From assembly GCF_056746865.1 (NCBI RefSeq), contig NZ_CM163382.1: 64,000 nt of DNA, one strand, 5' to 3'. A program made the translations under genes and the position numbers. Shown here in pieces: positions 31,178-58,635 of this stretch (position 1 is its first letter; each line of letters opens with the position of its first letter). The notes below the pieces were generated by a model. It did not search any database. It worked only from the letters and a program-made list of their open reading frames with translations, and was not told where the DNA came from.

Positions 31178-32407
31178 TCATCTGCTACCGTTTAGGAATG
31201 CGGACCTTCTATTGCTTTTTGATTTTACACCATAATAAACAGCATTAATTTGCGTCTTCATCAATAAATATTCACGAAACTTCTTAAACAGTTTCATATC
31301 TGGTTTAAAATCGGCCTGCCAGAATTGGTGCAAATGCCCTTGATACGTCAACCCCTTGATGTCGTACAGAGCATTACCCATCACTTTGAGTGGTTTGTTA
31401 TGAATCAGTGCAGAGATCCCCACTGTACTGTTAATTGTCACAACCGCTTTTGCATGGCGTAATAATTCCGGCATTGGGAGATCGTGTACGTATATGACTC
31501 GCTCGCCTAAGCCATATTCCTTACTCAACCGCTTAATTAATGGTCGATAGAGTCTGTGACCGCGATCCATCGGATGGTGTTTGATCACCAAATAACTCTC
31601 TTTCGGTGCCTTATGCGAAAATGAATATACAACTTCGTTAATATAATCACGCACATCATTATAATTACTGTGATTACGAATTTGGCTATCATTATAAACT
31701 TGTAAAATAACAAGATAGTAACGTTGGTCCAGATCATTCACTAACCGAGCCAATACATTACGTTGCATTATTTTGTAAAATAGCTTACGCCAGTACGCAC
31801 GCCCCCAGCAACGAGCCTCATACCAAGGAGAAAATGATTTGTGATGACGGTAGCGAGTGAATTCATGTCGGTAATGCCATCCCATCAGGTAATACCACAT
31901 TGCATGACCAATACGTTTCATCGTCGAGGGTTTTAAGTTCTCAACATGTGGTGCAGGCATATCTGGTAATTTACGATAAAAGTCAGGATCGCGCGGCAGC
32001 GATGAATACGCGTTTACACCGTCCTCTTCAACAGTAATAAATTGCGGACGTAAATATCCTTCTTCAAATGCCAGAAAGCGGATCCCTTTAGACTTCGCCC
32101 AACGTTTTGCTTCTTTGTGCAATGGACGGCAGTCACCAAAACAGAGAATGGTATCAAAGTCAAATTGCCGGTGGATATCTCGTAACCAACCAGGAAATTC
32201 TTTCGGCGTTTGGTAATAAGCCAGATAGTGTCGATGACGGCAGTAAAAACGATCTCCTCCATTGAATACAACATTCACAGCGTTACGACCTAATGACTCT
32301 AACCACTCGGCAACATCATTGAAGAAAGGTCCCATCGGTCCCTGCAATAGCAGATATTTTTTACCAGATAATAAAATGCTCAGAGCATTATTTTTCATAA
32401 TAATCAA
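31178..32407 (-). CDS. kpsS: capsule polysaccharide biosynthesis protein KpsS
   Basis: 409 aa; …LLSGKKYLLLQGPMGPFF…LAFEEGYLRP… recognised as KpsS. Confidence 0.85.
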   Translation of the reverse strand: MIIMKNNALSILLSGKKYLLLQGPMGPFFNDVAEWLESLGRNAVNVVFNGGDRFYCRHRHYLAYYQTPKEFPGWLRDIHRQFDFDTILCFGDCRPLHKEAKRWAKSKGIRFLAFEEGYLRPQFITVEEDGVNAYSSLPRDPDFYRKLPDMPAPHVENLKPSTMKRIGHAMWYYLMGWHYRHEFTRYRHHKSFSPWYEARCWGRAYWRKLFYKIMQRNVLARLVNDLDQRYYLVILQVYNDSQIRNHSNYNDVRDYINEVVYSFSHKAPKESYLVIKHHPMDRGHRLYRPLIKRLSKEYGLGERVIYVHDLPMPELLRHAKAVVTINSTVGISALIHNKPLKVMGNALYDIKGLTYQGHLHQFWQADFKPDMKLFKKFREYLLMKTQINAVYYGVKSKSNRRSAFLNGSR

Positions 32408-33560
32408 GTAATAGTTGACAATAAAATTTATCAGTTCAGTAAAATTATAAGAATATAATTAATTTCCGTTAACAGCGTATAACTCGTTTCTTTTTTCTGA
32501 TAAAAAATCGAATTTGATTGATGTTTGAAGTAAATATTTCAAAGATTATCCAACCGCAATAGGCTCCAGCCGTATTGGGAGCATAAAATATTGGATAAGC
32601 ACAGATCGCATCTGCGAATCTTAATCTACGCCCGTGACGTGGGGAAAATGGTATACACCAACATTATATCTGTATTAAATTCTAGATTTTCAAGTGTCTG
32701 TCATTTCCTTTAAAAAAGAAAGCGTCGCCATAAACACTCTCTAAACAAAAAACCTATAAGAATAGAATTTATTATAGAACCAAGACGGTTTAGAAACACA
32801 TCTATTACCAAACACTGAACATAACTCTAAACAACATTGAATAAAAATTAATGACTTTTAATATATTTCATATAGTGTATCCTCTGGAGAGCAATATATT
32901 AATCGCTACAGAACGGTTATTAAAAAATATAGAACCAGTGATTGAATCAAAATGACCGATAAACAGTTCAGCAAAGTATAGCAACAGTGACATTTGTTAT
33001 AACAATGATTTTTACTACACGCAAAATATTAACATCACTAAAGTAATGAAAAAACATATTTATCTAAGCACAAAAATACAATATATAGCACATTATAAAA
33101 TAGAATTAAAACAAACCGTAACAACCATGATGCTATATTAATAGTTAAAATATTTTTAGTAAAAGATAAATTACCCCCATTAAAAATTCAAAACTGATGT
33201 TAGTTAACTCATAAGATCCTGCTAATTGATATAACTACGCCCCATGGGATAATGTTTTAATAACAGAACATTATCAGAAAACTGATCCCTCCAAATTTAA
33301 TTATTTTCTTGCTTATTTTATCAATAAAATAGAGTTCTGAAAAGTTATCTTATCTGAAAATATATTAGTGCCATATAGTAACAAAAAATATCAACCTTGC
33401 ATAATGATTTTAACTGTTCAAATAGTGCTCTACCCACATATCACGGGTGACATTTAATATATTTCCTTTGATACTCTACCAATAATAATTTATTGCTGAT
33501 TGTTTAATCACATAATCCCAAACTGCCCTGCAATAATATATTAACTCACAAAAAAAATCA

Positions 33561-35708
33561 TCAGGGTAAAAGTGAACGAAAAAGTCTCAAAGTTTGAGCA
33601 AAAGAAACTAACTTAATTCGCCAACGCTGCCACCACTTAACACCTGCCGTCGTAGCTTTTTTTTGAGTAGATAATAGATGAATTAATTGTTCAGGGCTGC
33701 ACCAAAGCCCTGACTTCCAATCTATATAACGCGGATATTTTACTAATGTAATATATGCTAATGCACTCAACGTTAATGTACGATGGCGTCTTTCTGATGG
33801 ATGCTTATCTTGTGTTAATCCCCAACCACTATAAAACGGCTGTCCCCATGTCGTAACCTTCACTCCTTGAACTAGTGCCTCAAATCCACTAAGCGAAGTC
33901 ATGGTATGTAACTCATTTATGTGTGGATATAGCGATTCCAGTCTAATATCAGATACTTGGCTATCAACACAGTGTGCTAAACAACGCGCCGAAATAGTAC
34001 CTTTTCGATTGCCAGATACCACATCCGGATGAGGTTTGAACAGAATATGTGCATTCGGTTTAGCTTCACGCACAGCCCACAACAACTGTTCATTGCTGCG
34101 GATAATCGGGCTACCACACAAAATGGATGCATCACCATCAACCTGACCAACCACTAGAATCAACTCACGTCCGTCGTTAGGGGGCTCATATTCTTGTGTA
34201 CTCCCCACATTGTATTTACTGACTCGTGATGATTGTAATTGCGCTAATAATGACTCTGCGCGTGCTTCTTCTTTCGCATCTAAAACGTACGTAGTGAGTA
34301 ACTGCTCAAGCTTACTCGGACGGCGGCTATCAAAATAGATTCCAACGGGGTCAATCGAGAGTGATGAAGGTCGACATAAATTAGACCCCAATCCGTTGGA
34401 GCGGATAAAACCATCTTCAATCCGGATCACTGATTGCAGTTCAGGATAACGGTTTCCCCACACCAACACCTGTTCATCATCTTTTAACTGTGAGGGCACA
34501 GTACGAACAAAACAAAGTTCATCTGCCAAATACGCACAAAATGTGCGTATAAAAGCACGCTTCCACAGAGAAAAACCAACGAGATAAAGACGACGCCAAG
34601 GTTTGGGCTCTACCTGCTGCTGAGCCAAAATCGCTACAACATCTTCTACCTCACAACGTTTTCCCAATATAGGATCTAAATAACGCGGATAACGGATCAA
34701 CGCCGCCGCAACTAAGCGGGGCAATGAAATAGATGAAACGCCTTCGGCTGACATTGCTTCTTCACGGCGTATACAACGTTTACTGTCATGCGTTAACCCC
34801 CACCCAGCATAAAATGGCATACCGAAGCAATATACAGGTTTGCCCAACAGCAACGCTTCAAAGCCAACCTGCGATGAAACTGTGTACACCGCATCCACCA
34901 TACGAATTATTCTATGCGGATGGCAAGGTTCACTCACCACCTCAACATCAGCCAGTCGAGGATCACGCCCCACTAAACGTGCTAACACGCCGCTTTTTTT
35001 GCTAAAGCGTGTATCTGGGTGTGTTCGCAACAATAGACGCGCATTAGGGTGATTACGGCGAGCCTCGACCACCATAGAAACAAAATCAGCTTCGCAAGCA
35101 AGAGCCCCAGAAATTGACAAGTCTCCCGCTACTTGATCCACAAGCAAAATACGCGGTCTTGGATCATCCAGTAAACGTGCTAAGTTTGAATGAGCCGTGA
35201 GGGTGAATAACTCAGGTTGTATATGTGTCGGTAAATCTAAAGAAGGCCCGTCAGTAGCACGGACAGAGCCATTAAATGTATGCTCAGTGCTATTGGTATA
35301 GCAGTTATACTTGGTGATTCCTAAACGCAAAATATCAGAGATCAGATGCTCAGCGCGCGCAAGTAAAGCCGTATCAACAGGTTCAATAATAAGCTGTTCT
35401 AATTGACTCGTCTGATGTGCATCATAATATATCCCCAGAGGGTCAGCAATAAGAGAAACCGCCTTTCCTCCTTTTGCTGGGTGCCCGATATAGCCAATAA
35501 AACCATCTTCAAGTTGCCAATAAGATATTCCTAACTCTTGAGCTTTCTGTTTAATCTGCTTAGTATTAGATTTTTTTCCCCAGCCAACTAAAACGTCATT
35601 TTTAGAAAAAGCCTCGTCTCCTTTCATATAAAGCAATGGGTGACCAAGCATAGGCTCAATATTATTTTTTCTGGCAAGAATCCCTTTCGATCCCGTATAT
35701 AAATACAT
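33561..35708 (-). CDS. kpsC: capsule polysaccharide biosynthesis protein KpsC (two-domain)
   Basis: 715 aa; duplicated-domain architecture with motifs …LEDGFIGY… and …IEDGFIRSNGLGS…, …PHPDV…GNRKG…, …HTMTSLSGFEAL…; exact start codon uncertain. Confidence 0.85.
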   Translation of the reverse strand: MYLYTGSKGILARKNNIEPMLGHPLLYMKGDEAFSKNDVLVGWGKKSNTKQIKQKAQELGISYWQLEDGFIGYIGHPAKGGKAVSLIADPLGIYYDAHQTSQLEQLIIEPVDTALLARAEHLISDILRLGITKYNCYTNSTEHTFNGSVRATDGPSLDLPTHIQPELFTLTAHSNLARLLDDPRPRILLVDQVAGDLSISGALACEADFVSMVVEARRNHPNARLLLRTHPDTRFSKKSGVLARLVGRDPRLADVEVVSEPCHPHRIIRMVDAVYTVSSQVGFEALLLGKPVYCFGMPFYAGWGLTHDSKRCIRREEAMSAEGVSSISLPRLVAAALIRYPRYLDPILGKRCEVEDVVAILAQQQVEPKPWRRLYLVGFSLWKRAFIRTFCAYLADELCFVRTVPSQLKDDEQVLVWGNRYPELQSVIRIEDGFIRSNGLGSNLCRPSSLSIDPVGIYFDSRRPSKLEQLLTTYVLDAKEEARAESLLAQLQSSRVSKYNVGSTQEYEPPNDGRELILVVGQVDGDASILCGSPIIRSNEQLLWAVREAKPNAHILFKPHPDVVSGNRKGTISARCLAHCVDSQVSDIRLESLYPHINELHTMTSLSGFEALVQGVKVTTWGQPFYSGWGLTQDKHPSERRHRTLTLSALAYITLVKYPRYIDWKSGLWCSPEQLIHLLSTQKKATTAGVKWWQRWRIKLVSFAQTLRLFRSLLP

Positions 35709-35757: not shown

Positions 35758-36309
35758 TTAGATGAACAGCTCTGCGCTCTCTAATGACTTTGCAATACTA
35801 TCTTTTGCTGAAGTGAGAATGTCCGCCTTTAACTCGGGCCACCTAATACCAATTGTAGGATCATTCCATGCAATGCCTCTATCACTGGCAGGGGCATAAT
35901 AATTAGTTGTTTTATACAAAAATTCGGCCGATTCAGTCAGTGTTACAAAACCATGGGCAAATCCTTCCGGAATCCATAACTGTCGTTTGTTTTCCCCTGA
36001 AAGATGAACGCCAACCCATTGTCCGAAGCTCGGTGAGCTTTTGCGAATATCTACCGCAACATCAAACACTTCACCGGCTACACAACGCACTAACTTGCCC
36101 TGGGCATGGGGAGGTAACTGATAGTGCAAGCCACGCAGTACCCCTTTAGAAGATTTTGAGTGATTATCCTGCACAAAGGTAACTGGATATCCTACAGCCT
36201 CTTCAAACAACTTGTGATTAAAACTCTCAAAGAAAAAACCACGCTCATCTCCAAATACTTTTGGCTCAAAAATAAGCACACCAGGAATTGCTGTCTTGAT
36301 TACATTCAT
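35758..36309 (-). CDS. rmlC: dTDP-4-dehydrorhamnose 3,5-epimerase
   Basis: 183 aa; …FGDERGFFFESFN…RGLHYQ… cupin motifs of RmlC. Confidence 0.9.
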   Translation of the reverse strand: MNVIKTAIPGVLIFEPKVFGDERGFFFESFNHKLFEEAVGYPVTFVQDNHSKSSKGVLRGLHYQLPPHAQGKLVRCVAGEVFDVAVDIRKSSPSFGQWVGVHLSGENKRQLWIPEGFAHGFVTLTESAEFLYKTTNYYAPASDRGIAWNDPTIGIRWPELKADILTSAKDSIAKSLESAELFI

Positions 36310-36374
36310 CTATATGCCCACATTTAATTAAATATTTTTAGGGGAAGCATATTCCCTCCCCCTTCTCAATTACA

Positions 36375-37253
36375 TCACGCCTTATCAATCATTTTTAATA
36401 AATATTGCCCATAGGCGTTTTTTGCCAACGGAGCAGCAAGCTCACGAACCTGGTCGGCACTAATAAACTTCTGGCGATAAGCAATCTCTTCCGGACAAGC
36501 CACTTTCAATCCCTGACGCGTCTCGATGGTCTGAATAAAGTTACTCGCTTCAATTAGGCTTTCGTGGGTACCGGTATCAAGCCAGGCATAACCACGCCCC
36601 ATCATTGCCACCGATAGATTGCCTTGCTCCAGGTAAATACGGTTCACATCGGTGATTTCCAACTCACCACGCGGCGATGGCTTGAGACCCTTGGCAACGT
36701 CCACAACGCTGTTGTCGTAGAAATAGAGGCCGGTGACTGCGTAGCTACTCTTAGGCTCCAGTGGTTTTTCTTCCAGTGAAATAGCGGTACCTTGATTATC
36801 AAATTCGACCACTCCATAACGTTCCGGGTCGTGCACATGATAGGCAAATACAGTAGCACCGGTCTCTTTGGCCGCGGCTGCCTCCAACTGTTTCTGTAGG
36901 TCATGACCGTAGAAGATGTTATCCCCCAGCACCAGTGCACACGGGGCTGAACCAATGAATTCTTCACCCAGAATAAAAGCTTGTGCCAACCCGTCTGGGC
37001 TTGGCTGAACCTCATATTGTAAATTCAGTCCCCAGTGGCTGCCATCACCCAGCAATCGCTGAAAGCGAGGAGTATCTTGTGGAGTGCTAATGATCAAAAT
37101 ATCGCGAATTCCAGCCAGCATCAGGGTGCTCAGCGGGTAGTAGATCATCGGCTTGTCATAGATGGGCAACAACTGCTTGCTCACCGCCATAGTAACCGGA
37201 TAGAGACGTGTACCAGATCCACCGGCCAGAATAATACCTTTACGTTTAGTCAT
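36375..37253 (-). CDS. rmlA: glucose-1-phosphate thymidylyltransferase
   Basis: 292 aa; [21 protein letters not shown]… signature. Confidence 0.9.
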
Positions 37254-37333
37254 GATGCTTGTTTCTTATTTTTAAATTACATAAGAATAAAGTGGCTTGA
37301 GCCGCGCCTTTCTGTTTTATCCTCACCTGTGGT

Positions 37334-38221
37334 TTACTTCCCCATGATCTCAGTCAACATCCGCTCAACACCGACTGACCAGTCCGGCAAAACCAGATCA
37401 AATGTACGCTGGAATTTTTTAGTATCAAGTCGGGAATTATGAGGGCGTTTCGCCGGGGTCGGAAAGGCGCCTGTCGGCACTGCATTAAGCTGTGTGACTG
37501 CCAGTTCAACTCCTGCGTCTCTGGCTTTGTCAAACACCAACCGGGCGTAGTCAAACCAAGTGGTAGTACCGGAGGCAGCCAAATGGTACAGCCCGGCAAC
37601 GTCGGGTTTGCTCTGTGCAACTCGGATTGCATGGGCGGTACAATCGGCCAGCAACTCAGCTCCAGTTGGAGCGCCAAACTGATCATTAATGACCGATATC
37701 TCGCGACGCTCTTTGCCAAGACGCAGCATAGTTTTGGCGAAGTTGGCACCGCGCGCAGCATAAACCCAACTGGTACGAAAGATAAGGTGACGTGAGCAGA
37801 GTGCCGCACCGTGTTCCCCTGCCAGCTTGGTTTCGCCATAGACGTTGAGCGGGGAAATCACATCGGTTTCCACCCAAGGACGTTCACCACTTCCATCGAA
37901 AACATAGTCGGTGGAATAATGTACTAGCCACGCACCTAATGCTTCAGCTTCTTTGGCAATAACCGCCACACTAGTTGCATTGAGTAACTCGGCAAATTCC
38001 CGCTCACTCTCCGCTTTGTCGACTGCAGTATGGGCCGCTGCGTTAACAATCACATCCGGCTTGACGAGACGTACCGTTTCAGCCACCCCTGCAGAATTGC
38101 TAAAATCACCGCAATAGTCGGTGGAGTCAAAATCAACGGCAGTGATGTGCCCCAGAGGCGCCAATGCACGCTGCAGCTCCCATCCTACCTGACCATTTTT
38201 GCCAAACAACAGAATATGCAT
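37334..38221 (-). CDS. rmlD: dTDP-4-dehydrorhamnose reductase
   Basis: 295 aa; [20 protein letters not shown]…; start overlaps the rmlB stop (ATGA). Confidence 0.9.
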   Translation of the reverse strand: MHILLFGKNGQVGWELQRALAPLGHITAVDFDSTDYCGDFSNSAGVAETVRLVKPDVIVNAAAHTAVDKAESEREFAELLNATSVAVIAKEAEALGAWLVHYSTDYVFDGSGERPWVETDVISPLNVYGETKLAGEHGAALCSRHLIFRTSWVYAARGANFAKTMLRLGKERREISVINDQFGAPTGAELLADCTAHAIRVAQSKPDVAGLYHLAASGTTTWFDYARLVFDKARDAGVELAVTQLNAVPTGAFPTPAKRPHNSRLDTKKFQRTFDLVLPDWSVGVERMLTEIMGK

Positions 38222-39306
38222 CAGGTACGCTCCCTATAGTTTTGTTCAATCCAGGATTGGTAGGCACCACTCTTGACGTTGTTAATCCATTGTTGATTAT
38301 CCAGATACCACTGCACGGTCTTGCGAATACCAGACTCAAAAGTCTCCTCTGGCTGCCAATCCAACGCAGCGCTCATCTTGCAAGCATCAATCGCATATCG
38401 GCGATCGTGTCCGGGGCGATCCGCCACATAAGTAATTTGATCGCGATAAGAGCCAGCTTTCGGTACCATCTCGTCAAGCAGATCACAAATAGTATGTACT
38501 ACATCCAGGTTCTGCTTCTCGTTGTGACCGCCTATGTTATAAGTCTCCCCGACCAAGCCAGTGGTCACTACCTTGTAGAGTGCTCGTGCATGATCTTCCA
38601 CATACAACCAGTCACGAATTTGGTCACCTTTACCATAAACCGGCAGCGGCTTGCCATCCAGCGCATTGAGGATCACTAGCGGGATCAGCTTCTCGGGAAA
38701 GTGGTAAGGGCCATAGTTGTTGGAGCAGTTAGTGACAATGGTTGGCAGGCCGTACGTACGGTACCAAGCACGCACCAGATGATCGCTGGAAGCCTTGGAG
38801 GCAGAATAGGGACTGCTAGGAGCGTAGGAGGTAGTTTCGGTAAAGAGCGGCAATGCCTCACCGGAGGCTACTTCATCCGGATGGGGCAGATCGCCATATA
38901 CTTCATCGGTAGAAATATGGTGGAAGCGAAAGGCCGCCTTGCTCAACTCGCCCAGACTGCTCCAATAGGCGCGAGCCGCTTCCAGCAATGTATAGGTGCC
39001 TACGATATTGGTTTCGATAAAGTCGGCTGGCCCTGTGATAGAACGATCAACATGGCTTTCAGCAGCCAGATGCATCACGGCATCTGGCTGGTGCAGAGCA
39101 AACACCCGATCCAACTCAGCACGATTACAGATATCAACTTGTTCAAACGAATAACGCTCACTTGACGATACACTGGCCAAAGATTCCAAATTGCCAGCAT
39201 AGGTGAGTTTATCCAGATTGATAACGGAGTCTCCAGTATCACTAATGATATGACGCACCACGGCAGAGCCGATAAAACCAGCACCGCCAGTAACGAGAAT
39301 CTTCAT
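38221..39306 (-). CDS. rmlB: dTDP-glucose 4,6-dehydratase
   Basis: 361 aa; [21 protein letters not shown]… Rossmann motif and SDR catalytic region. Confidence 0.9.
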
Positions 39307-40030
39307 ATATTTCGCTCTCTTATTTTACAATTAATAGCTATTAAAAATAAACTTGTTGACTCCGATATATTAGAAATATCGGGATACCGAACTAAATATT
39401 TTTATATGCTTTTGCCAAGCAGACTCTATATCCACCCTGTATCACTATGCTTTCTGGCATACAATATCCCATCATTGACACAATGATAAACATATAAATA
39501 AAGAAAATTTTAAATCATATAACCAAATTACTTTCACTTTATTATCAATAAGTATTTTGATAAGAATACCTATACCACAGGGAGCCCCCTGAAACATAAT
39601 ATTAGCGAAGAATGATAACTGATAGTTACCATCTTAGAGATAAAAACTTATTTGTGTGGCGGGCATGACATGCCAGAGAATAAAATAGACTCAAAAAAAA
39701 TCACTAAGGGAGTTATTTGCAGCAAGAGAATTTCTTAGTCACTTGATTCAAAACAATCAAATTAAAAAGCGTTTTGATTATTAGCCTTATTTTATATATT
39801 GTGTCGTTACAGATAAAGTAAAAAACACATAATGGCATTTTCGGTTGACATATGTATTAACATATATTGCTTTATCATATAACCATATTTCAATTCAACT
39901 TACACTCTCAAGTTAATTGAAGCAGGCAATGCCTAATATATTTTTGCATCATAACCTATGATTAATATTAAAACACCAATCAGTTCGATTTTTAAACATT
40001 CAATAGCACCAATTAAATAAAAATATCTTT

Positions 40031-43071: not shown

Positions 43072-43174
43072 AATATAACTTACAGTCCAAAGTAACAGAT
43101 GGGGGATACAGATCCTTATTAGCAGGCCTGTAGATAAGAGCAGAAATAAACACCAAAGCGCTTGCTCAATATAT

Positions 43175-45910: not shown

Positions 45911-45928
45911 ATATATTTTTTACAAGTA

Positions 45929-47209: not shown

Positions 47210-47215
47210 TAAATT

Positions 47216-48445: not shown

Positions 48446-48456
48446 TCTACTTAAAA

Positions 48457-50874: not shown

Positions 50875-50876
50875 TT

Positions 50877-53606
50877 TTATTCTCCCTTATTGACAGGCAG
50901 GCAACTGCGCTGCTCAAACTTCCCATACATAATGTAATGAAGCAGCGGATTAATGCCTCCTTGGGCCACATCCGGATAGGCTTGCAAATACCAGCGAGTA
51001 TCAAACTGCTCACTAGGGCTATAACCTTTATCCGCCCCCACGCTAATAAAATGCTCAAGAGCTGAGAGCCCAGTGTCTGCAACCTCTGGGTAGCGATGTT
51101 GATACCAGAGTTCATCAAACAATCCTGAAGCGGCAATACGCTCCGCGGCACTCTCTGTAGCTGTTGTTCTGGATGGAGTCTCCTTAAATGTTCTGCCAAG
51201 AGCACGAACTGGGGCTGTAATCTTCCAAGAGACGGTTCTCTTCAAATTCTGAGCGCGTTCTTTTGCTCTATTCAATTGCCGCTCTTTTTGTTTTAACTCA
51301 CAGCTAAGCTGCTCCATATGCCGCGTCATGACTGCCAACTCCTGGAAACGCTCTGCAATATTAGCTTCCAACCTTCCGTTGAGTGTGGTTAGTTCTCTTA
51401 CCTGGTCTTGCAGTACAGACTGCTGGCTCTGCAGCAAGGTTTGTTCCCGGATTAAGGCCTCCTTCTCTTCTTTCCAGGCTTGCTGCTGAGCTCTATATGT
51501 TTCATTGGTCTGTTGTTGTTCACTTGCTGCGCTAAGGAGTGCCTGATCACGTTCTTCCAGCCAACGGGTTAAGGTTGCAATCTCGCTGTACCGCTCATTG
51601 AGCACCGATTCCAACTCATCAAGTTGATGTTGCTTTTCTTTTGCTGCTGAGAGCAATGCAGACTGGGCCTGCTGAAGCGACTCTTGCTCAGCCCTTAACT
51701 GCTGCTCTACGCCAGACAACTTGGTGGTAATCAATTGTTTTTCAATCTCTAGTTCAGTGATAATCTGCTTGTGCTCTTCTAATAGACGTGTTAGAGCTAC
51801 CGTTTCACTAAAACGCTCGGCTAATGCCAAGTCCCGTTCGCTAATCTGTTGCTGATGTGTGGTCTGTTCAACTGCCAGTTGTTGTTGTAATGCTGATAGC
51901 GCCTCTGTGAGTTGCTTATACTCTGCTTGTTGAGCAGCCATTACGTCGCTTTGTGACGCAATATTAGACTCGCGCACTGCTATTAGTTGAGTCAGTTCAT
52001 CACATTGTTTAGAAGCCGCAGCCAAAGCAAGAGTTTGCTCATCTATGCTTTGCTGCAATGTTTGTTGCACAAGTTGCCCTTCTTCCAACTGTTGCTGTAG
52101 ATTTGCACTTACCTTTTTCAGTGCATCATATTCCAAGCCTAACGTATCGTGCTGTGCTTCCAGTAATCCATAAGCATGCTGCAACTGGTTTTTAGTTTGC
52201 TGCTCACCGTCAAGCTGCTGCTGCAATGCATTAGCCTGCTGTTGCAACAAGTTCACCATATTGTCTCGCTCGGCCAGTGTACGAACCTGTGTATCCTGGA
52301 CATGTAGCGCTTGTTCCAACTGAAGCTGTAATTCGGTAATTTGCCGCGAATGTTCGCTCAATGCTCTGTTACTCTTGCTGAGCGCGAGAGTAAGGTGAGA
52401 TGCACGCTGTGTTTCTTCACTCAATTGTAACGTCAGGGTATTGACCTGTTGCTCCAGTTGATGGCGAGCTTGCTCCTGGCTCGTGATGCGACTCTGTTGC
52501 TGCTCTAGTTGATGCAGAGCTGTATGCAACTCATCGTTGGCTTGTATTCGCTCCTGCGACCATACACTCAAGTTTGTTTGGGCCTCATTGAGCTGTTCTT
52601 GCAATAATGCCACCTCAGATGTCAGCGAATTGATATGTTGCTGGGCAAAAGATAGCTCATCAGATTGCACTTGAGCATGTGCAAGCTGCTTTTCCATTTC
52701 TAATATGCTGTTATGTTGTGCAGTAATGCGCTCGGCAAGACGCCCTCTTTCCAATGCCTGCTGTTCTACCAATAGCTGCCGTTCAGCCTGAATGTCATCT
52801 TGTTGTGTAGACAACTGACGTTTTAACAGGGAATTCTCCCAACTCTCGCTACAAGATTTCCCCAAACGACAAAAGATGTCTTGGACTTGTTTGGTTACAC
52901 GAGCATTTTCTGAGATTTTATACAAATTATTAAGTTCTGGAGATTGTTCACACCCCACACCAACTATCCCTAGTCCATGCCCATGAGCGAACTCAAAGTG
53001 TGGATATTGTCGTTTTAATTCATCCAAAAGCTGAAATACGCCAAAACCACGTTCCCTAACATTGGTATCATGCATAATGACCACAGCCCTTTCAGAAAGC
53101 TTTGGCAACCAGCTTTCAAAATCATGGCGTACCGCTTCGAACGTATGCAAACCATCAATATGAAGCAGATCAATGCTACCTTGTGAAAAATGCTCTAACG
53201 CTTGGTCAAATGTACTGCGAATGAGAGTAGAAAAACCTGAATAGTGCTGTTGATTATATTCTGATACTTGCCTGTAAACTTCTTCGCCATACAGCCCCGC
53301 ATGTTCATCTCCCCCCCAGGTATCAACGGCAAAGCAGCATGTTTCTAAATCTAGTTTAGAGACTGCCTGGCAGAATGAGAAATAAGAACTTCCATAATGA
53401 GTTCCCAGCTCAACAATATTTCTTGGCCGCAGTGTGTCAACTAACCAGAAAGCAAAAGGAATATGTTCTAGCCAAGCAGATTGTGCAAGATATGTAGGAC
53501 GCCAAAAAAGAGATGATTTGAAAATGAAATTCAATTCCCCGCCAATATCAGTGATGGGATATAACTCACGATTTTCTACTAACTGACTAATTTTTTGACT
53601 ATCCAT
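50877..53606 (-). CDS. methyltransferase-domain protein with ~550-aa coiled coil and C-terminal repeat motif
   Basis: 909 aa; N-terminal …IVELGTHYGSSYFSF…IDLLHIDGLHTFEAVRHDFESWLPKLSERAVVIMHDT… resembles class I SAM-dependent (Methyltransf_24-like) methyltransferases; residues ~250-800 are Q/E/L-rich heptad-like sequence; C-terminus has two FD..WY…YPDV… repeats. Confidence 0.6.
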   Translation of the reverse strand: MDSQKISQLVENRELYPITDIGGELNFIFKSSLFWRPTYLAQSAWLEHIPFAFWLVDTLRPRNIVELGTHYGSSYFSFCQAVSKLDLETCCFAVDTWGGDEHAGLYGEEVYRQVSEYNQQHYSGFSTLIRSTFDQALEHFSQGSIDLLHIDGLHTFEAVRHDFESWLPKLSERAVVIMHDTNVRERGFGVFQLLDELKRQYPHFEFAHGHGLGIVGVGCEQSPELNNLYKISENARVTKQVQDIFCRLGKSCSESWENSLLKRQLSTQQDDIQAERQLLVEQQALERGRLAERITAQHNSILEMEKQLAHAQVQSDELSFAQQHINSLTSEVALLQEQLNEAQTNLSVWSQERIQANDELHTALHQLEQQQSRITSQEQARHQLEQQVNTLTLQLSEETQRASHLTLALSKSNRALSEHSRQITELQLQLEQALHVQDTQVRTLAERDNMVNLLQQQANALQQQLDGEQQTKNQLQHAYGLLEAQHDTLGLEYDALKKVSANLQQQLEEGQLVQQTLQQSIDEQTLALAAASKQCDELTQLIAVRESNIASQSDVMAAQQAEYKQLTEALSALQQQLAVEQTTHQQQISERDLALAERFSETVALTRLLEEHKQIITELEIEKQLITTKLSGVEQQLRAEQESLQQAQSALLSAAKEKQHQLDELESVLNERYSEIATLTRWLEERDQALLSAASEQQQTNETYRAQQQAWKEEKEALIREQTLLQSQQSVLQDQVRELTTLNGRLEANIAERFQELAVMTRHMEQLSCELKQKERQLNRAKERAQNLKRTVSWKITAPVRALGRTFKETPSRTTATESAAERIAASGLFDELWYQHRYPEVADTGLSALEHFISVGADKGYSPSEQFDTRWYLQAYPDVAQGGINPLLHYIMYGKFEQRSCLPVNKGE

Positions 53607-53746
53607 TGAGGAAAACTCACATGTATTTATAGAATTAAATCAAGAAACCTGAAAATACCTATAGTGCGGTAACTTATTAACTAACATTAAAATATTAACA
53701 ATACACTTGGAAATATTAGTTAAAAATAAATCATTATGATTTCTCA

Positions 53747-54949
53747 TCAATCCTGGTGCTCACGCAAAGTTGCCAGCCCCATAATAATAAGACCATAGAA
53801 CAAGCAAAGTAATACACCCACAGTCGCAAGATTATAGAATCGCCGTGGATATTCGGCATCTTCCGCTAAAGTTGGTTGGGTAATAACCAATAGGTGCTTA
53901 AGTTTACGATATGCCTCAACCCGCGTCTGCTCTAAGCTGATAAGGCCAGTTTTGTAGAGATCCGCTGCCAAGGTTGCCTGCGTTTGCACATCCATGTAAC
54001 CGGCGGTGATTTCATTCATGGCATCGTTATCTTGACCAGTCAGCTTAGCACGCTCCTGTTCAAGCTGCTTGGTTAGGGCGTCAACTCGGCTCTGTAATGA
54101 GACTACGGCCGGTGCGGTTTCCTTCATATAGCTGCGCAGTTGTTTTAGCTCCGCCTGTTGACGCACCAGCTCTCCTTCAATCTGGCTGACCACTCCTAAG
54201 CGTGCGCTGCTGGTAGATTCAGGGCTGAGAAGTTGGTGGCTATTCTGAAATGCTAATACTTTAGCTTTTTCATCCTGTAAGCGTTGATATGCTCTATTTA
54301 CTTCTTTTTCAACAAAGGCCAATTGTTCGAGCGCAACCTGATGACCTAATTTGTTAATAAAACGCTCCGATTCTTTGAGCATTAACTCAACAACTCGCTG
54401 ACCGTATTGGGGATCAAATGTCTGCAACTCAACGGTAAGTACTCCTGATAATTCATCAAGATGTAACGTCAAATGTTTGCGGTAATAATCAAGAAAATCC
54501 TCCCTACTGACTCCCTTATGCAACCGCGAGAAATAATCTGCACTATCACTCTGGAAATGTGCTTTAAGTGCAAGTTCTTTGTCCAACTTGGCCAGCATAT
54601 CCCATGACTTCATATAATCCTGAACGAGTAATATATCCTGATGATTACTACCACCGATCCCTAACATTGATAACGCATCAGGCAACATTTTAACTTGATC
54701 GGCTTGTTTAATCATTAATTCAGCCCGGCTCACATAACGATCGGAAGCAATGAAGCCAAAATAGAGCACTGCGATAGAAAAGCAGATAACTACCCAAAGA
54801 AAACTGCCTAGCTGTAAACTTTTCTTCCACGAGCGGTGTACAATTTGATATCCTCTCGAATCAATCAAAAATAGTTTTGGATTATTGCTCAGTTTTCTTA
54901 ACTTTCGCGCAAGGCGAGATATTGAGGATGAAGAATTCGGAGATGTCAT
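53747..54949 (-). CDS. kpsE: capsule export inner-membrane protein KpsE
   Basis: ORF 53747..55006; start at MTSPN (54949) avoids overlap with kpsT; N-terminal TM segment then long periplasmic helical region and C-terminal hydrophobic segment. Confidence 0.7.
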   Translation of the reverse strand: MTSPNSSSSISRLARKLRKLSNNPKLFLIDSRGYQIVHRSWKKSLQLGSFLWVVICFSIAVLYFGFIASDRYVSRAELMIKQADQVKMLPDALSMLGIGGSNHQDILLVQDYMKSWDMLAKLDKELALKAHFQSDSADYFSRLHKGVSREDFLDYYRKHLTLHLDELSGVLTVELQTFDPQYGQRVVELMLKESERFINKLGHQVALEQLAFVEKEVNRAYQRLQDEKAKVLAFQNSHQLLSPESTSSARLGVVSQIEGELVRQQAELKQLRSYMKETAPAVVSLQSRVDALTKQLEQERAKLTGQDNDAMNEITAGYMDVQTQATLAADLYKTGLISLEQTRVEAYRKLKHLLVITQPTLAEDAEYPRRFYNLATVGVLLCLFYGLIIMGLATLREHQD

Positions 54950-54962: not shown

Positions 54963-55613
54963 TCAAAGTGACTGGTAAATTTTGATGGCATCATCAATAT
55001 TATCAAAAACTTCTAATTTACCATCACGTAACAAGATGCCCATATCGCATTGTTGTCGTAGATTTTTCATATCATGTGAAACCATAATCAAACTAGCTGT
55101 TTCTCGCTTTTTGTTAAATACATCAATACATTTTTGTTTAAAACGTGCATCACCTACTGAGGTAATTTCATCGGTAAGATATATATCAAAATCAAAAGCC
55201 ATACTAACAGCAAAAGAAAATTTTGATTTCATGCCGCTAGAGTATGTTTTAATAGGCAACTCATAATGTTGTCCAATTTCAGAAAACTCTTTAACCCACT
55301 CTTCTACGGTGCTTGTATCGCGTACACCATGAATGCGGCAAACAAATCGCGTGTTTTCACGACCAGTCATACTACCTTGAAATCCCCCACCTAGTGCTAG
55401 AGGCCAAGATACTCGGCAGAGACGAGTTACTTTCCCCCTGTTAGGCGTATCCATCCCTCCTAACAAACGTAACAAAGTAGATTTTCCTGCTCCATTGATA
55501 CCTAGAATACCTATATTACGGTCCCTTGGTAGCTCAATATTTACATTCCTCAGGACATAATTTCGTCCAAATTTAGTCGGATAATATTTTGATACATTAT
55601 CAAGAATAATCAT
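54963..55613 (-). CDS. kpsT: capsule ABC transporter ATP-binding protein KpsT
   Basis: 216 aa; Walker A GINGAGKST, ABC signature YSSGMKSKF, Walker B IYLTDE. Confidence 0.9.
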   Translation of the reverse strand: MIILDNVSKYYPTKFGRNYVLRNVNIELPRDRNIGILGINGAGKSTLLRLLGGMDTPNRGKVTRLCRVSWPLALGGGFQGSMTGRENTRFVCRIHGVRDTSTVEEWVKEFSEIGQHYELPIKTYSSGMKSKFSFAVSMAFDFDIYLTDEITSVGDARFKQKCIDVFNKKRETASLIMVSHDMKNLRQQCDMGILLRDGKLEVFDNIDDAIKIYQSL

Positions 55614-55624
55614 TTTTCTTAACG

Positions 55625-56425
55625 CTAACTAGCAATCAATTGGCGATGCCGTAATCGGTAACAACTCATAGCAAAAGTGAGCAATAATAAGGTGACAACC
55701 GACAGATACGCCCAACTTACATCAGGACTACGATAACCAGATATCCATGCCCTTCGGATTAGTTCTACAGCATGCACAAGTGGATTCCATAAAAACCAAT
55801 GCTGATATTGAGGGGGAATAGTAGCAAGAGGAAACATAACACAAGAGATAAACATCAAAGGCATCATTAACAAGCTAAGAAATTTATCTGCCTCTTTCGC
55901 TAAGTTACAAATAACACAAAATACAATACCAAGAGAAAAAGAAAACAGCATCAGAAGAGAATAACCAAGGATCACTTGCAATGGATCCGCAGGTATTGCA
56001 TCAAAGCCAAACCACAATAATCCTAGTACTAGGATGATACCGACAATCATGCCCACCATTGTTTCTAGCATAAAACGTGCTATAAAAGTTGCAAAAGGAG
56101 TCACTTGTCTATAACAAAAAAGTCCCATATTAGCATTGACAGCAGATTTCAACTGAGTCACAACTTTATTGAAAAACATGAAAGGTAAATAACCAGCAGT
56201 AATAAAAACCTGGGCTGGGACACCACCAAAGCCACTTTGGCTTCTCATCCCAAATACTACACTGAACAGGCTAATCATTAATAATGGGTCAAGTAATGCC
56301 CAAGCATAACCTAGTCGGTAATTACCAAATCTTGTTTTTAGCTCACGAATTAATAAGCCAAATACTACATCACGTAATACTTGCAAAGAAGTGCGTGGAG
56401 TTTGACTAATAATGGGTTTGTCCAT
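55625..56425 (-). CDS. kpsM: capsule ABC transporter permease KpsM
   Basis: 266 aa; ABC-2 type permease with six predicted TM segments; immediately upstream of kpsT. Confidence 0.9.
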   Translation of the reverse strand: MDKPIISQTPRTSLQVLRDVVFGLLIRELKTRFGNYRLGYAWALLDPLLMISLFSVVFGMRSQSGFGGVPAQVFITAGYLPFMFFNKVVTQLKSAVNANMGLFCYRQVTPFATFIARFMLETMVGMIVGIILVLGLLWFGFDAIPADPLQVILGYSLLMLFSFSLGIVFCVICNLAKEADKFLSLLMMPLMFISCVMFPLATIPPQYQHWFLWNPLVHAVELIRRAWISGYRSPDVSWAYLSVVTLLLLTFAMSCYRLRHRQLIAS

Positions 56426-56491: not shown

Positions 56492-58237
56492 TCATTTAAT
56501 AGCAACGTTAGCAGCTACAGCGATTTGATAAATAATTTGTGTGATATCTTTAAATGATTGCATGGTTTTGCTATCAACCTGAGGTAGAACCAATATCTGA
56601 TCCCCCGGTTGTACTTTACCTTGCCCTTTAAATTCTACAAGACCATTTGCATGTACAATAGCAATTCGCTTGTCGTTAGCTCGCTCAGTAAAACCTCCGG
56701 CCCATGCAACATAATCATCCAAATTAGCATCGGCATTATATACTACTGCTTGTGGCATCAACACTTCACCACCCACTTGAATAAGATCAGTCTTATTTGG
56801 AATAACTATTTGATCGCCTTGTTCTAATTGGATATTGGCAATAACACCTTTATCTGCAACTACTACTTTACCAAGCGGTTGAACTTTACGAGCCTTTTCA
56901 ACAAACTGCATCACTAACTCTGCTTCTTTAGCACGTATATTCGCCTCACCATCAGATCGCGCGGGTGTGGTAAATACACTACGTTCCAAGCGGTTTAGAG
57001 ATTCATCCAGCATCTCTTTTTGTCTTGCAGCCACACTCTTTCGTATCAGATAAATTGATTGATAATCCGCAAGCTCTGGGTCAATAGGGATATAGTTCAA
57101 TAAATCATGCAATTTAGTTTGCTTACGAACCGTGAAATATGACGGTCCCATATAACTGCCTGATACTTGTATATCATATACTTGTGCATGCATGTCATCA
57201 TTAAAAAGTACTTTGTCACCGTCTTTAAGTTGAAGACGTGTAAAATCTTTATACGGCAAGTAGACGGAAAACGGGCCGCTTTCCCTGTCGCCAATCACAC
57301 CGACATGACTGACTTTTGCGAGAGGAAGTGCATAATTCACCAATTCAGAGCCTAATGCATTGCGCTGGGTAAGCTCAAATCGGAATGGGTTTCGAACCTT
57401 TCCCGCAACATTGATCATTGGACCTTGTTGCTCAACTAAAATCACATCTTGATCTTTTAATGCCAGCTTCGGGAGTTTCCCATACCGTATGAAATCATAA
57501 AGATCAATTTGCTGTATTACTCTATTTTGTCGTAACACCTTAATTTTTCGATAACTTCCACGGTCAGAATCTATTCCACCGGCACGTTTTAAAAAATACA
57601 ATATACTATCAGAAGATTGTCCTGCATACTGCCCAGGACGAATTACAGGCCCCGTAACGAATACACTTACAGGGGTTGCAGTCAAAAGATTTACGTAAGT
57701 ATTTACATTATTGGTAAATACATCACCGATCTTACTTGCCACCAACTGATTAACTTGGCTTGCAGGAACATTTTTTACATTTATTGGACCTACATCAGGT
57801 ATGAAAATATTTCCTTGATTATCTACCGTAACCACATTAGAGAAATTGACCGCTCCCCAAATCCAGATATTTAACTTATCCCCAGGAGCAATCAAATAAT
57901 TATCGCTTAAGCCGTCACTCCTTTCTGTTTCATAGCCTCCGGCAAATAAATTAGCACCATACGGAGGAGGTAAGCCTGCTTCAGATTGCGGCAGTAATTT
58001 TCGTACATCTGACTCTCCTGGAAGCAACATCCCATTACGATTCTGTTGTGTGAAGCTTCCTGTTGTGGAGGTTGTATTAGGCTGTCCAGTGATGTCTGCT
58101 AGCATTTTCCGAGACTCTCCTGTCGAGGCAGCAAGATCATAATCTAAATGTGAACCATTAGATTGATTTTGCTCTATTGCGGCGAATGCTGATGCAGAAA
58201 TAAGAAAGAGAAGAGTGCTAAGTTGCGAAATTTTCAT
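56492..58237 (-). CDS. kpsD: capsule polysaccharide export protein KpsD (Wza-like)
   Basis: 581 aa with signal peptide (MKISQLSTLLFLISASAFA); polysaccharide-export family regions; first recognisable kps gene of a kpsD-M-T-E block. Confidence 0.8.
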   Translation of the reverse strand: MKISQLSTLLFLISASAFAAIEQNQSNGSHLDYDLAASTGESRKMLADITGQPNTTSTTGSFTQQNRNGMLLPGESDVRKLLPQSEAGLPPPYGANLFAGGYETERSDGLSDNYLIAPGDKLNIWIWGAVNFSNVVTVDNQGNIFIPDVGPINVKNVPASQVNQLVASKIGDVFTNNVNTYVNLLTATPVSVFVTGPVIRPGQYAGQSSDSILYFLKRAGGIDSDRGSYRKIKVLRQNRVIQQIDLYDFIRYGKLPKLALKDQDVILVEQQGPMINVAGKVRNPFRFELTQRNALGSELVNYALPLAKVSHVGVIGDRESGPFSVYLPYKDFTRLQLKDGDKVLFNDDMHAQVYDIQVSGSYMGPSYFTVRKQTKLHDLLNYIPIDPELADYQSIYLIRKSVAARQKEMLDESLNRLERSVFTTPARSDGEANIRAKEAELVMQFVEKARKVQPLGKVVVADKGVIANIQLEQGDQIVIPNKTDLIQVGGEVLMPQAVVYNADANLDDYVAWAGGFTERANDKRIAIVHANGLVEFKGQGKVQPGDQILVLPQVDSKTMQSFKDITQIIYQIAVAANVAIK

Positions 58238-58263
58238 TATTTTCTAACCGTCTACCTTCAACT

Positions 58264-58635
58264 TTATTCTTCAATAAGCAAAGTGCTAACTGATGTTTGT
58301 TCCAACTGAGGTACTTGATACCACTTGTTATTCTCTTTACATACAACACTTCGCTTTGAATAATTTTTATTCATCGCATAACTTAACTTTATGCATTGAG
58401 AACCTAAAGCCGATATATACCTTTCCTCAATAGTATAAATTACGCCATTTTTGTTGAATGTCGTGCCTTGATCTTGGTTATTTAATGGTGCCTGCAAATC
58501 TTCAGGAATAAGAGAATAAGAAGAATTAATCGCTGTTACCAATGGACGAGAGGCTTCAACTTGTTTTGGATCATGTGCGCAGGCCGTTATAAAAAAGATT
58601 AGTGAAAATAATAAAATACGATGTGCAAGGTGCAT
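58264..58635 (-). CDS. putative small lipoprotein
   Basis: 123 aa; signal peptide with lipobox-like FITAC; directly upstream of and co-directional with kpsD. Confidence 0.45.
   Translation of the reverse strand: MHLAHRILLFSLIFFITACAHDPKQVEASRPLVTAINSSYSLIPEDLQAPLNNQDQGTTFNKNGVIYTIEERYISALGSQCIKLSYAMNKNYSKRSVVCKENNKWYQVPQLEQTSVSTLLIEE

Follow-up and report, generated by a model that had tools for sequence, protein, structure and literature searches.

Does the capsule locus in this stretch of DNA specify an unrecognised K antigen, or one that is already catalogued? The stretch (64,000 nucleotides of contig NZ_CM163382.1, assembly GCF_056746865.1; hereafter the window) contains, in its list of open reading frames, an unbroken minus-strand gene array running from 58635 down to 31178, and every feature described below lies on that strand. 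As an earlier note on this DNA had claimed, the layout is that of group 3, with kpsD-M-T-E followed by nine serotype genes, rmlBDAC, kpsC and kpsS, all in intact frames, and each gene that it named is supported by the list of reading frames together with profile or structure matches. The locus reaches past the end given in that note (58635), since a kpsM remnant and, at 59566-59604, a JUMPstart element also belong to it, and its GC content drops to 0.31-0.33 at 46000-47999 compared to 0.53-0.58 in the chromosomal flanks. The sequence comparisons presented here indicate that this is very probably a K98-type kps locus of group 3A on an Escherichia coli chromosome, intact and equivalent to cluster TBA_6 and to KL98.

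The conserved genes frame the serotype region on both sides. At one end, kpsD (56492-58237) encodes a periplasmic/outer-membrane polysaccharide export protein that matches NCBIfam polysaccharide export families and is one residue apart (99.8% identity) from WP_023154148.1 of PF9285 and LR-27, a protein annotated as 'polysaccharide biosynthesis/export family protein'. The ABC transporter permease gene kpsM (55625-56425) matches NF050053 with an E value of 1.3e-46, below the curated cut-off, and kpsT (54963-55613) encodes a 216-residue ATPase in which ABC ATPase families cover residues 1-214; judged by its length and these matches, KpsT is a nucleotide-binding domain alone, without a C-terminal carbohydrate-binding module. 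For KpsE (53747-54949), an inner-membrane export protein of polysaccharide co-polymerase-like type, the TIGR01010 (BexC/CtrB/KpsE) score is 497 bits, with a cut-off of 437.5. At the other end, rmlB (38221-39306), rmlD (37334-38221), rmlA (36375-37253) and rmlC (35758-36309) all score above NCBIfam equivalog or subfamily cut-offs, and the products of this segment (35758-39306) jointly make dTDP-L-rhamnose. The beta-Kdo transferase KpsS (31178-32398; NF050054, E 1.3e-118, below the curated cut-off) initiates the linker on its lipid acceptor and has the same sequence (100% identity) as WP_000794251.1 of PF9285 and LR-27. The dual-module beta-Kdo transferase KpsC (33561-35708), which extends the lipid-linked Kdo linker, matches 6mgd (E 1.4e-64) and 6mgb (E 1.5e-52), two KpsC chains of solved structure.

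Upstream of kpsD, orf123 (58264-58635), found in the list of reading frames, encodes a small protein, conserved and lipoprotein-like at its N-terminus, that is 100% identical in PF9285 and had no match in an NCBIfam search; in the sibling K96 locus, the capsule survives deletion of the region containing its counterpart (PMC13410964). A fragment at 59422-59544, detected by tblastn with KpsM as the query (39% identity over 41 residues, E 6e-8), is a kpsM pseudogene, a leftover of a group 2-type region 3, and at the same position in relatives PGAP calls a frameshifted partial ABC transporter permease. The start codon of kpsD is preceded, at a distance of 1.33 kb, by the JUMPstart RNA element, which Rfam RF01707 detects with 54.4 bits (gathering score 35; E 1.1e-9). 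Within this element is the ops sequence GGCGGTAG (59570-59577), which occurs only once in the window. JUMPstart/ops is the site where RfaH loads for the long operon: the K96 sibling needs an equivalent element and RfaH, and the involvement of RfaH, OxyR and a distant promoter has been demonstrated there (PMC13410964).

These features bear on whether the cluster might be silent, with missense changes or failed expression leaving a genotype without a capsule. Acapsular mutants of the K96 sibling frequently arise spontaneously, disabling mutations occur in at least 12% of surveyed genomes, and function is not readable from sequence alone. However, all 20 proteins have full-length reading frames, none truncated, and match their PF9285 counterparts at 98.4-100% identity; the kpsC and kpsS products are 100% identical to the proteins of other carriers; and the JUMPstart element is intact within a leader that lacks the IS5 present in those of PF9285 and AR_0372. 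We therefore regard a silent cluster as unlikely.

The earlier note had taken the serotype region to be unrecognised, not seeing in it a known K-antigen cluster, and here it was wrong: 39307-53746 is found at full length and 99.7-99.8% identity in five complete E. coli genomes, a high-identity match to a catalogued type. The region is 99.8% identical to that of PF9285 (CP038791), the larger interval 29308-59278 is 99.72% identical to PF9285 throughout, and DNA identity to CP038791 is given overall as 99.7%, with a few amino acid substitutions. CP038791 is listed as cluster TBA_6 in Hong et al. (2023); in their TBA_6 prototype, LR134240, wsaE is described as interrupted by an insertion sequence, whereas wsaE of the window is intact.

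The type itself was read from a fingerprint. When the window was compared with the K149 reference, AP027506, the per-gene identities reproduced the K149-versus-K98 table of kTYPr (2026). Three values agree exactly (31.818%, 36.655% and 42.094%, the first two type-specific), and those for ugd (95.619% versus 95.63), K98_11 (88.800% versus 88.889) and rfbB (99.446% versus 99.448) would also be exact if, as we infer, kTYPr counted one extra matched position per protein; the remaining values are off by one to four residues. The kTYPr entry for K98_7 (405 residues, PF13704 at 9-96, E 1.2e-13) agrees with the window, both clusters measure 26.93 kb, and the K98 reference has the same gene order, gene lengths and cassette of a 405-residue glycosyltransferase and a 426-residue AlgX-like protein. 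The seven other G3A catalogue types were ruled out by gene content. The assignment to K98, which is KL98 in the Kaptive-style database, and has NZ_QYZN01000023.1:34187-61117 as its reference cluster (reference strain assembly GCA_977947765), is thus indirect, by fingerprint through the K149 reference and by elimination.

A distinct, unnamed K type near K98, such as KL173, could share this gene order and yet specify an antigenically different polymer. In the Gladstone tree KL173 and KL98 are close sisters with little distance between them, the departures of one to four residues from the K98 reference in identity to K149 affect seven window proteins, and Hong et al. (2023) gave TBA_6 no serotype assignment. 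That non-assignment, however, dates from before the kTYPr study sequenced the K98 reference strain; the type-specific gene returns the published K98 identities exactly, at the same length and Pfam coordinates, and there is no gene gain or loss, with protein identity to other carriers of at least 98.4%. A separate type is therefore distinctly improbable, and we retain the assignment to K98. Because the serotype region is already catalogued as K98, the cluster itself is ordinary; only a few of its components are still putative, namely K98_5, K98_8 and an orphan beta-sandwich domain.

The K98 polysaccharide is reported to consist of a poly-rhamnose backbone with glucuronic acid side branches (10.1101/2025.01.29.635457), in agreement with the polymer of rhamnose and glucuronic acid that had been predicted from the genes; as further predicted, it may also be O-acetylated and methyl-capped. 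Where four or five glycosyltransferases had been counted, there are five such proteins, one of them with two GT2 modules. This is K98_6 (wckN-like; 48457-50871), 804 residues long here and in kTYPr, with two PF00535 regions, matches to GT2 enzymes in the PDB (e.g. chondroitin synthase, 1.2e-24) and weak matches to the TIGR01556 rhamnosyltransferases; its homologue K153_6 has a PANTHER WbbL rhamnosyltransferase match in the kTYPr listing. We propose K98_6 as the candidate polymerase of the poly-rhamnose backbone. Three further transferases form a conserved block: the GT92-like K98_12 (43175-44143; PF01697), which is 37.7% identical to K98_7 and 95.3% to K149_10; the 673-residue K98_13 (wsaE-like; 41050-43071), with GT2 families over residues 376-632 and 34% identity to K98_6 over 707 residues; and the 343-residue K98_14 (wckE-like; 40031-41062), a putative GT-B-type transferase with a weak TuaH match, whose homologue K10_13 is assigned to Gene3D 3.40.50.2000 (kTYPr Supplementary Table 3). 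The K96 capsule requires wsaE (PMC13410964).

The type-specific part spans only 2.6 kb (45857-48457; GC 31-33%) and encodes two proteins, one a GT92-like transferase and the other of the AlgX/PatB O-acetyltransferase fold. The foreign origin suggested for the AT-rich genes gains support from a syntenic Aeromonas caviae locus with the same cassette, which is AT-rich there too. K98_7 (47216-48433), a GT92-like/GT-A transferase of 405 residues with PF13704 at residues 9-95 (1.1e-13), PF01697 (1.1e-9) and a beta-sandwich-like C-terminal domain, is missing from K149, K145 and K3, and we propose it as the candidate transferase for the glucuronic acid side branch. K98_8 (45929-47209; 426 residues), previously noted as a possible SGNH-type O-acyl enzyme, has an AlgX/AlgJ/PatB SGNH-like O-acetyltransferase fold, although its sequence similarity to that family is barely detectable (Pfam E 0.029). 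Unlike the solved relatives, it has no signal peptide and the locus contains no AlgI/PatA-type MBOAT partner, and it carries an additional N-terminal beta-sandwich; it is probably a cytoplasmic AlgX-like enzyme of predicted activity. The next gene, ugd (44714-45880), was correctly named: its product, a UDP-glucose 6-dehydrogenase supplying UDP-GlcA, scores 705 bits with NF011631 and 331 bits with TIGR03026, above the cut-off of the latter. K98_11 (44143-44520) is an orphan of 125 residues, conserved in related group 3 loci, that had no match in Pfam, NCBIfam or PDB sequence searches and whose homologues are confined to E. coli, Aeromonas veronii and Plesiomonas. It weakly resembles the N-terminal part of K98_8 and the C-terminal part of K98_7. 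A putative orphan beta-sandwich domain is common to three proteins.

The methyltransferase-coiled-coil protein of the earlier note is K98_5 (wckM-like; 50877-53606), an O-methyltransferase (PF13578 at residues 65-181, E 5e-25) followed by a coiled coil of ~550 residues and a pair of C-terminal motifs. For residues 1-270, an AF2 model (pLDDT 88.9) finds its closest Foldseek relatives in MeT1 and cation-dependent O-methyltransferases. Residues 272-793 match SMC-type profiles, and the composition of residues ~250-800, nearly proline-free and 56-68% Q/E/L/A/R/K, supports the coiled coil. The C-terminal motif, of ~35 residues, also occurs in K98_6, and K98_5 and K98_6 may dock through it. By analogy with the coiled-coil terminator model (PMC11231755), we propose K98_5 as a putative chain terminator and length ruler; we found no report of a terminal methyl group on K98 in the part of the literature that was accessible.

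That the methyltransferase-coiled-coil protein, dual-GT2 enzyme and rmlBDAC form an ABC-transporter-type O-antigen module making O-polysaccharide, as the Klebsiella O7 enzyme ORF6 with its methyltransferase, coiled coil and rhamnose-chain GT2 modules might suggest, is extremely improbable, given that the genes sit beside yghD/gsp, where capsule loci lie, with kpsDMTE on one side, kpsCS on the other and a kps leader in front, that the locus has neither a wzm/wzt pair nor a CBM-bearing Wzt, that K98 is defined serologically as a K antigen, and that its reference strain has the conserved kps genes and was included in a test for DMB-labelled capsular polysaccharide, in which only K3 was reported to fail.

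A pathway can be proposed for this K98 capsule locus. Gene identities, synteny, protein folds and the catalogue match are shown in this analysis, and the literature supplies the composition of K98 and the dependence of K96 on RfaH; each transferase assignment we infer, along with acetylation, capping and the ruler role. Transcription would start at a distant promoter beside yghD and pass JUMPstart/ops, and RfaH would therefore carry it for ~28 kb. KpsS and KpsC would make the beta-Kdo linker on the lipid acceptor, to which the K98_12 to K98_14 block would add a short rhamnose-containing adaptor. K98_6 would then polymerise the L-rhamnose backbone using dTDP-rhamnose from RmlBDAC, K98_7 would attach glucuronic acid branches using UDP-GlcA from Ugd, and K98_8 would O-acetylate the polymer. 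K98_5 would cap the growing end and set chain length in a WbdD-like manner, and export would be by KpsMT-KpsE-KpsD.

The WbdD-WbdA system of E. coli O8/O9a and ORF6 of Klebsiella O7 likewise have an N-terminal methyltransferase followed by a long coiled coil, and the adjacent gene is likewise a multi-module GT2 polymerase building rhamnose chains. K98_5 differs from these polymerase-terminator systems in its methyltransferase subfamily (PF13578, MeT1/CCoAOMT type), in its far longer coiled coil and in that no kinase domain was found. In WbdD-type systems, the cap is read by the carbohydrate-binding module of the ATPase; KpsT here is without a Wzt-type module, which counts against WbdD-like cap reading.

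Among catalogued loci, K149 (TBA_5; AP027506, CP027134) and K145 (TBA_2; CP023142) have kpsDMTE, K98_5 and K98_6 (96-99.5% DNA identity) in common with the window, as well as ugd, the gene for the 125-residue orphan, rmlBDAC, kpsCS and the block of three transferases. Both have a different transferase in place of 45857-48457, K145 adds an epimerase, and a 527-bp spacer of the window is occupied in K149 by a gene for an alpha/beta hydrolase. In K3 (TBA_4, e.g. the O4:H5 strain CU532-9), the kps genes, rmlBDAC, K98_5, K98_6 and the block of three transferases recur at 98.6-98.9% DNA identity, and its poly-rhamnose backbone is reported to be that of K98 (10.1101/2025.01.29.635457). Instead of ugd, K98_7 and K98_8, K3 encodes a NeuB-family synthase, a cytidylyltransferase, a CatB-type acetyltransferase and a phosphatase, consistent with its hexulosonic acid branch.

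When the serotype region (39307-53746) was compared by megablast with 5,426 complete genomes of E. coli, five of these, from cattle, sheep and a human, matched over 100% of the query at 99.7-99.8% identity; about 110 others reached a coverage of 76-82% or lower. From 29308 to 59278 the window is 99.72% identical to strain PF9285, and 20 of the 20 proteins compared with that strain match at full length (98.4-100% identical). The PF9285 sequence, CP038791, is the group 3A cluster "TBA_6" of Hong et al. 2023 (PMC10433991, Table S2). The loci for K3 and K98 were still unassigned when that survey appeared (PMC10433991); the kTYPr study (2026) sequenced K-antigen reference strains and defined the K98 cluster as NZ_QYZN01000023.1:34187-61117, lineage G3A (PMC13171606).

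We made the K98 assignment by fingerprint, comparing the window proteins with the K149 reference (AP027506) by blastp and setting the results beside the kTYPr table of K149-vs-K98 protein identities. The type-specific transferase is 31.818% identical to K149_7 and 36.655% identical to K149_10, and the polymerase (K98_6, 48457-50871, minus strand) is 42.094% identical to K149_11; the kTYPr values for K98 are the same in each case. For ugd, the orphan protein (K98_11) and rfbB, the window gives 95.619%, 88.800% and 99.446% and kTYPr gives 95.63%, 88.889% and 99.448%, figures that, to judge from the numbers themselves, would agree exactly if the kTYPr percentages count one extra matched position per protein. 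The other proteins in the comparison fall 1-4 residues off the published values. K98_7, the GT92-like type-specific transferase (47216-48433, minus strand), has 405 residues with PF13704 at 9-95 (E 1.1e-13) in the window and 405 residues with PF13704 at 9-96 (E 1.2e-13) in kTYPr, and K98_6 has 804 residues in both. Together with the AlgX-like protein K98_8 (45929-47209, minus strand), K98_7 sits between K98_6 and ugd in the window, and the cluster length is 26.93 kb in the window and in kTYPr K98 alike when taken with the kTYPr coordinate convention, as deduced on K149.

Among other types, K96/K54, which also combines glucuronic acid and rhamnose, was rejected: region 2 is different there, with K96_5 and K96_6 unrelated or distantly related, and the K96 genomes of Hong et al. 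2023 form a set of their own (PMC10433991). In K149, K145 and K3 the type-specific cassette is different in each case, and gene content rules out each of the seven remaining G3A types that kTYPr lists (K3, K10, K96, K114, K145, K149 and K158). By fingerprint and elimination, the serotype region is assigned at the sequence level to the already known K98 type. An earlier note had called this region unrecognised, a description refuted by the five full-coverage matches and by the K98 fingerprint. The database of Gladstone et al. also holds KL98 = K98, in ST69 and in O7:H6 ST362 (PMC13171598 supplements). Identical copies of the AlgX-like protein turn up in 929 blocks of a public assembly collection; the locus is widespread, yet rare among complete genomes. 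With its structure published in 1991, its genotype catalogued in 2023-2026 and the type recognised by current typing tools, the K98 serotype region is not new.

The ORF list shows a single uninterrupted gene array on the minus strand from 58635 to 31178, in the transcription order 123-aa ORF, kpsD, kpsM, kpsT, kpsE, nine serotype genes, rmlB, rmlD, rmlA, rmlC, kpsC, a 1.16-kb AT-rich spacer and kpsS. Region 1 is thus kpsD-kpsM-kpsT-kpsE, in this order on a single strand by ORF list and profile search, and region 3, kpsC-kpsS, lies 3' of the serotype genes. Profile searches placed KpsE (497 bits, TIGR01010), Ugd (331 bits, TIGR03026) and each of RmlB, RmlD, RmlA and RmlC over the curated cut-offs; KpsT has matches in ABC ATPase families and KpsD in polysaccharide export families, and a PDB search with KpsC hit two solved chains of that protein, 6mgd (E 1.4e-64) and 6mgb (E 1.5e-52). 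The NCBIfam matches of KpsM (E 1.3e-46) and KpsS (NF050054, E 1.3e-118) are under the curated cut-offs, as expected because the group 3 alleles are divergent. In the interval from yghD to the toxin-antitoxin genes, all coding-strand ORFs that reach 100 aa are accounted for, and no kpsF or kpsU was found among them. The group 3 layout lacking kpsF and kpsU that had been proposed is therefore borne out by ORF order and by the profile and structure matches. The genes yghD, gspL and gspK adjoin the locus at 60063-62753, an arrangement also seen in five annotated relatives; the locus occupies the chromosomal kps site beside the yghD/gsp type II secretion genes, in the serA-linked region (serA itself lies beyond the window). 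As a group 3 polymer, the product would be expected on a lyso-phosphatidylglycerol-poly-Kdo anchor, with expression at every growth temperature.

Several smaller features accompany these genes. The spacer between kpsC and kpsS (32399-33560) is 1.16 kb long, has a GC content of about 0.33 and contains no ORF that reaches 100 aa; it is kept in all five related loci compared. A second spacer, of 527 bp (39503-40029), stands between rmlB and K98_14, the last of a block of three transferase genes, where K149- and K158-type loci have an alpha/beta hydrolase gene. Neither spacer showed a coding remnant when KpsS, KpsC and the K149 hydrolase were used as tblastn queries. Directly upstream of kpsD, the conserved 123-aa ORF (58264-58635, minus strand) has a lipoprotein-like N-terminus (…LIFFITAC…) and no protein family match.

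Upstream of the array, a JUMPstart element was found at 59566-59604 on the strand of the operon (minus; RF01707, 54.4 bits against an Rfam gathering score of 35). It contains the only ops octamer of the window, although such an octamer alone is not significant (it was present in 62 of 100 shuffles) and the Rfam covariance score is decisive. A kpsM remnant, a pseudogene fragment at 59422-59544 (minus strand), follows, and both elements lie within the 1.8-kb leader between yghD and kpsD. Experiments on the K96 locus have shown that its promoter lies some 1.6 kb ahead of kpsD, with an ops element and with RfaH and OxyR dependence, and have found the kpsM' fragment and the small ORF dispensable; capsule persisted on deletion of the region with the K96 counterpart of the 123-aa ORF (PMC13410964). 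By analogy, the JUMPstart and ops elements suggest an RfaH-dependent leader here, the dependence itself having been demonstrated for K96 only. Taken together, the JUMPstart, kpsM' and the K96 promoter data imply that the functional unit reaches about 59.7 kb, past the end at 58635 in the earlier note. PF9285 and AR_0372 carry an IS5 in the operon leader, at the equivalent of window position ~59278; there is none in the window or in LR-27. The left flank (1-2041 and 21153-31226) is CP4-like island DNA. In strain A_5 this flank holds the toxin-antitoxin genes cbtA/cbeA along with radC, an antirestriction gene, DUF932 and the region of an Ag43-type autotransporter. The window start has a second segment, which shows 85-94% identity to the cbtA/cbeA-type region. 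Rfam matches in this flank are the Hfq-binding sRNA isrC (9472-9594, plus strand, 150 bits) and IS102 RNA (17532-17768, plus strand, 71 bits).

According to the reference-strain preprint, K3 and K98 have an identical neutral poly-rhamnose backbone, and their negative charge is carried by the branches, which are of hexulosonic acid in K3 and of glucuronic acid in K98 (10.1101/2025.01.29.635457). The presence of rmlBDAC and ugd fits a rhamnose backbone with glucuronic acid branches, and the polymer of rhamnose and glucuronic acid that had been predicted for the locus agrees with the reported K98 composition (10.1101/2025.01.29.635457). The gene contents run parallel: K3 loci (TBA_4; e.g. that of the O4:H5 strain CU532-9) have in common with the window the methyltransferase-coiled-coil gene, the dual-GT2 gene, the three-transferase block (K98_12 to K98_14, 40031-44143) and rmlBDAC, and the sole difference is in the middle, where K3 codes for NeuB-family synthase, cytidylyltransferase, acetyltransferase and phosphatase enzymes and the window has K98_7, K98_8 and ugd. 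Papers citing Hahne et al. credit them with solving the K98 polymer in 1991; the full repeat unit, including O-acetylation, was not found in EK3D, the BMC Genomics survey or the DMB preprint supplement. O-acetylation and a methyl cap are thus predictions for this polymer.

The only segment without a match to K149, K145 and K3 is a 2.6-kb cassette at 45857-48457, with one edge at the polymerase gene's 3' end and the other at the 5' end of ugd; Hong et al. inferred recombination junctions at these two places (PMC10433991). It is also the AT-rich part of the locus, with a GC content of 0.31-0.33 at 46000-47999 compared to 0.53-0.58 in the flanking gsp genes. An Aeromonas caviae contig (JBKARL010000053.1, 1-21266) has a syntenic group-3-like region 2 that includes the K98-type cassette, with protein identities of 83% (K98_7), 77.5% (K98_8), 88% (Ugd), 74% (K98_6 polymerase), 54% (the methyltransferase-coiled-coil protein K98_5) and 91% (RmlB). 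That contig has three extra genes, for a TPR protein, a 468-aa protein and a Methyltransf_11 protein. The cassette GC content in Aeromonas is 0.31-0.37, most neighbouring genes there being at 0.51-0.59; the cassette is AT-rich in both hosts and is therefore foreign to both, so that the foreign origin earlier proposed for the AT-rich serotype genes is supported and narrowed to these 2.6 kb. Its presence in A. caviae also indicates that the donor pool extends beyond Enterobacteriaceae. The comparison shows the route by which group 3 serotypes arise, namely the swap of a 2.6-kb AT-rich cassette at the site flanked by the polymerase gene's 3' end and the 5' end of ugd.

Three proteins of the locus have a further domain in common. 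K98_11 (44143-44520, minus strand; 125 aa) has no match in Pfam, NCBIfam or PDB, and its homologues were seen in no taxa but E. coli, Aeromonas veronii and Plesiomonas. Weak similarity links it to the beta-sandwich at the K98_8 N-terminus (E 0.003) and to the C-terminal end of K98_7 (E 0.023); an orphan beta-sandwich-like domain occurs free-standing as K98_11 and fused in K98_8 (46892-47161) and K98_7 (47306-47512), all on the minus strand. Our guess is that K98_11 recruits substrate.

K98_8 itself gave a weak Pfam ALGX match (E 0.029) and no match to PDB sequences; its AlgX/AlgJ/PatB SGNH-like fold was resolved by fold search alone, and not by sequence searches, from an AlphaFold model of moderate quality built with nine homologues (pLDDT 69.8, pTM 0.59). 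D229-T-H231-W and G325-D-S327 are invariant among homologues down to 31% identity, and the model thus appears to combine an SGNH-like fold with a D-x-H ... S arrangement, the order of these residues presumably being that of the catalytic residues of AlgX. The AlgX/AlgJ/PatB O-acetyltransferases are extracytoplasmic and have an MBOAT partner for acetyl relay, whereas the K98_8 N-terminus, MKYDIKLSVIRPDITG, has no hydrophobic signal sequence and no gene for an MBOAT or other membrane acyltransferase was found in the capsule locus. The pathway is otherwise well understood; its uncharacterised parts include the orphan domain and this apparently cytoplasmic AlgX-like enzyme.

K98_5 (50877-53606, minus strand) has PF13578 over residues 65-181, and residues 1-270 gave a confident model (pLDDT 88.9) whose best fold matches are MeT1 of Mycobacterium hassiacum, which methylates polysaccharide, and cation-dependent O-methyltransferases. 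Residues about 250-800 are almost proline-free, consist to 56-68% of Q/E/L/A/R/K and give SMC-type profile matches; from sequence features, then, K98_5 is predicted to be a terminating-type catalytic domain at the end of a long coiled coil. A motif of ~35 aa (FDxxWYxxxYPDV…G…P…H) is present in two copies in its last 80 residues (830-900; 50877-51120, minus strand) and once at the N-terminus of K98_6 (residues 12-53; 50713-50838, minus strand; 51% identical over 41 aa, E 2.9e-7), and may be a candidate docking motif of the two proteins. In terminators of the WbdD type, the C-terminal region recruits the polymerase and binds the membrane; such an enzyme would leave a methyl or methyl-phosphate group on the polymer's non-reducing end, and chain length would follow that of the coiled coil. 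We know of no terminator established for group 3 capsule pathways, and the methyltransferase-coiled-coil protein makes a testable candidate for the control of capsule chain length. According to the kTYPr authors, who do not analyse them further, many group 3 clusters hold such "putative methyltransferase genes" with coiled coils that vary in length (PMC13171606).

It is conceivable, if rather doubtful, that the known K98 locus works in a way new among kps capsules, by a capping ruler, docking, domain targeting and cytoplasmic acetylation jointly. A WbdD-like K98_5 with a coiled coil of ~550 residues could act as both capping enzyme and length ruler of the chain where no CBM-bearing transporter reads the cap, and the common ~35-aa motif could be its means of docking to the dual-GT2 polymerase; the orphan domain could target the branch-adding (K98_7) and acetylating (K98_8) enzymes to the rhamnose backbone; and K98_8, with its AlgX/PatB fold, could be active in the cytoplasm with no MBOAT partner. 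The remaining mechanistic questions concern the whole group 3 locus family and not this window in particular.

Unlike in polymerase-terminator systems, no kinase domain was found here. KpsT, at 216 aa, has ATPase profiles over residues 1-214 and no CBM, whereas in WbdD-type systems the CBM of the ATPase reads the terminal cap. The layout of the K98_5 and K98_6 pair resembles that known from ABC-transporter-dependent O antigens with a polymerase-terminator system, in which the terminating enzyme is carried on a coiled-coil ruler whose far end recruits the polymerase (PMC11231755).
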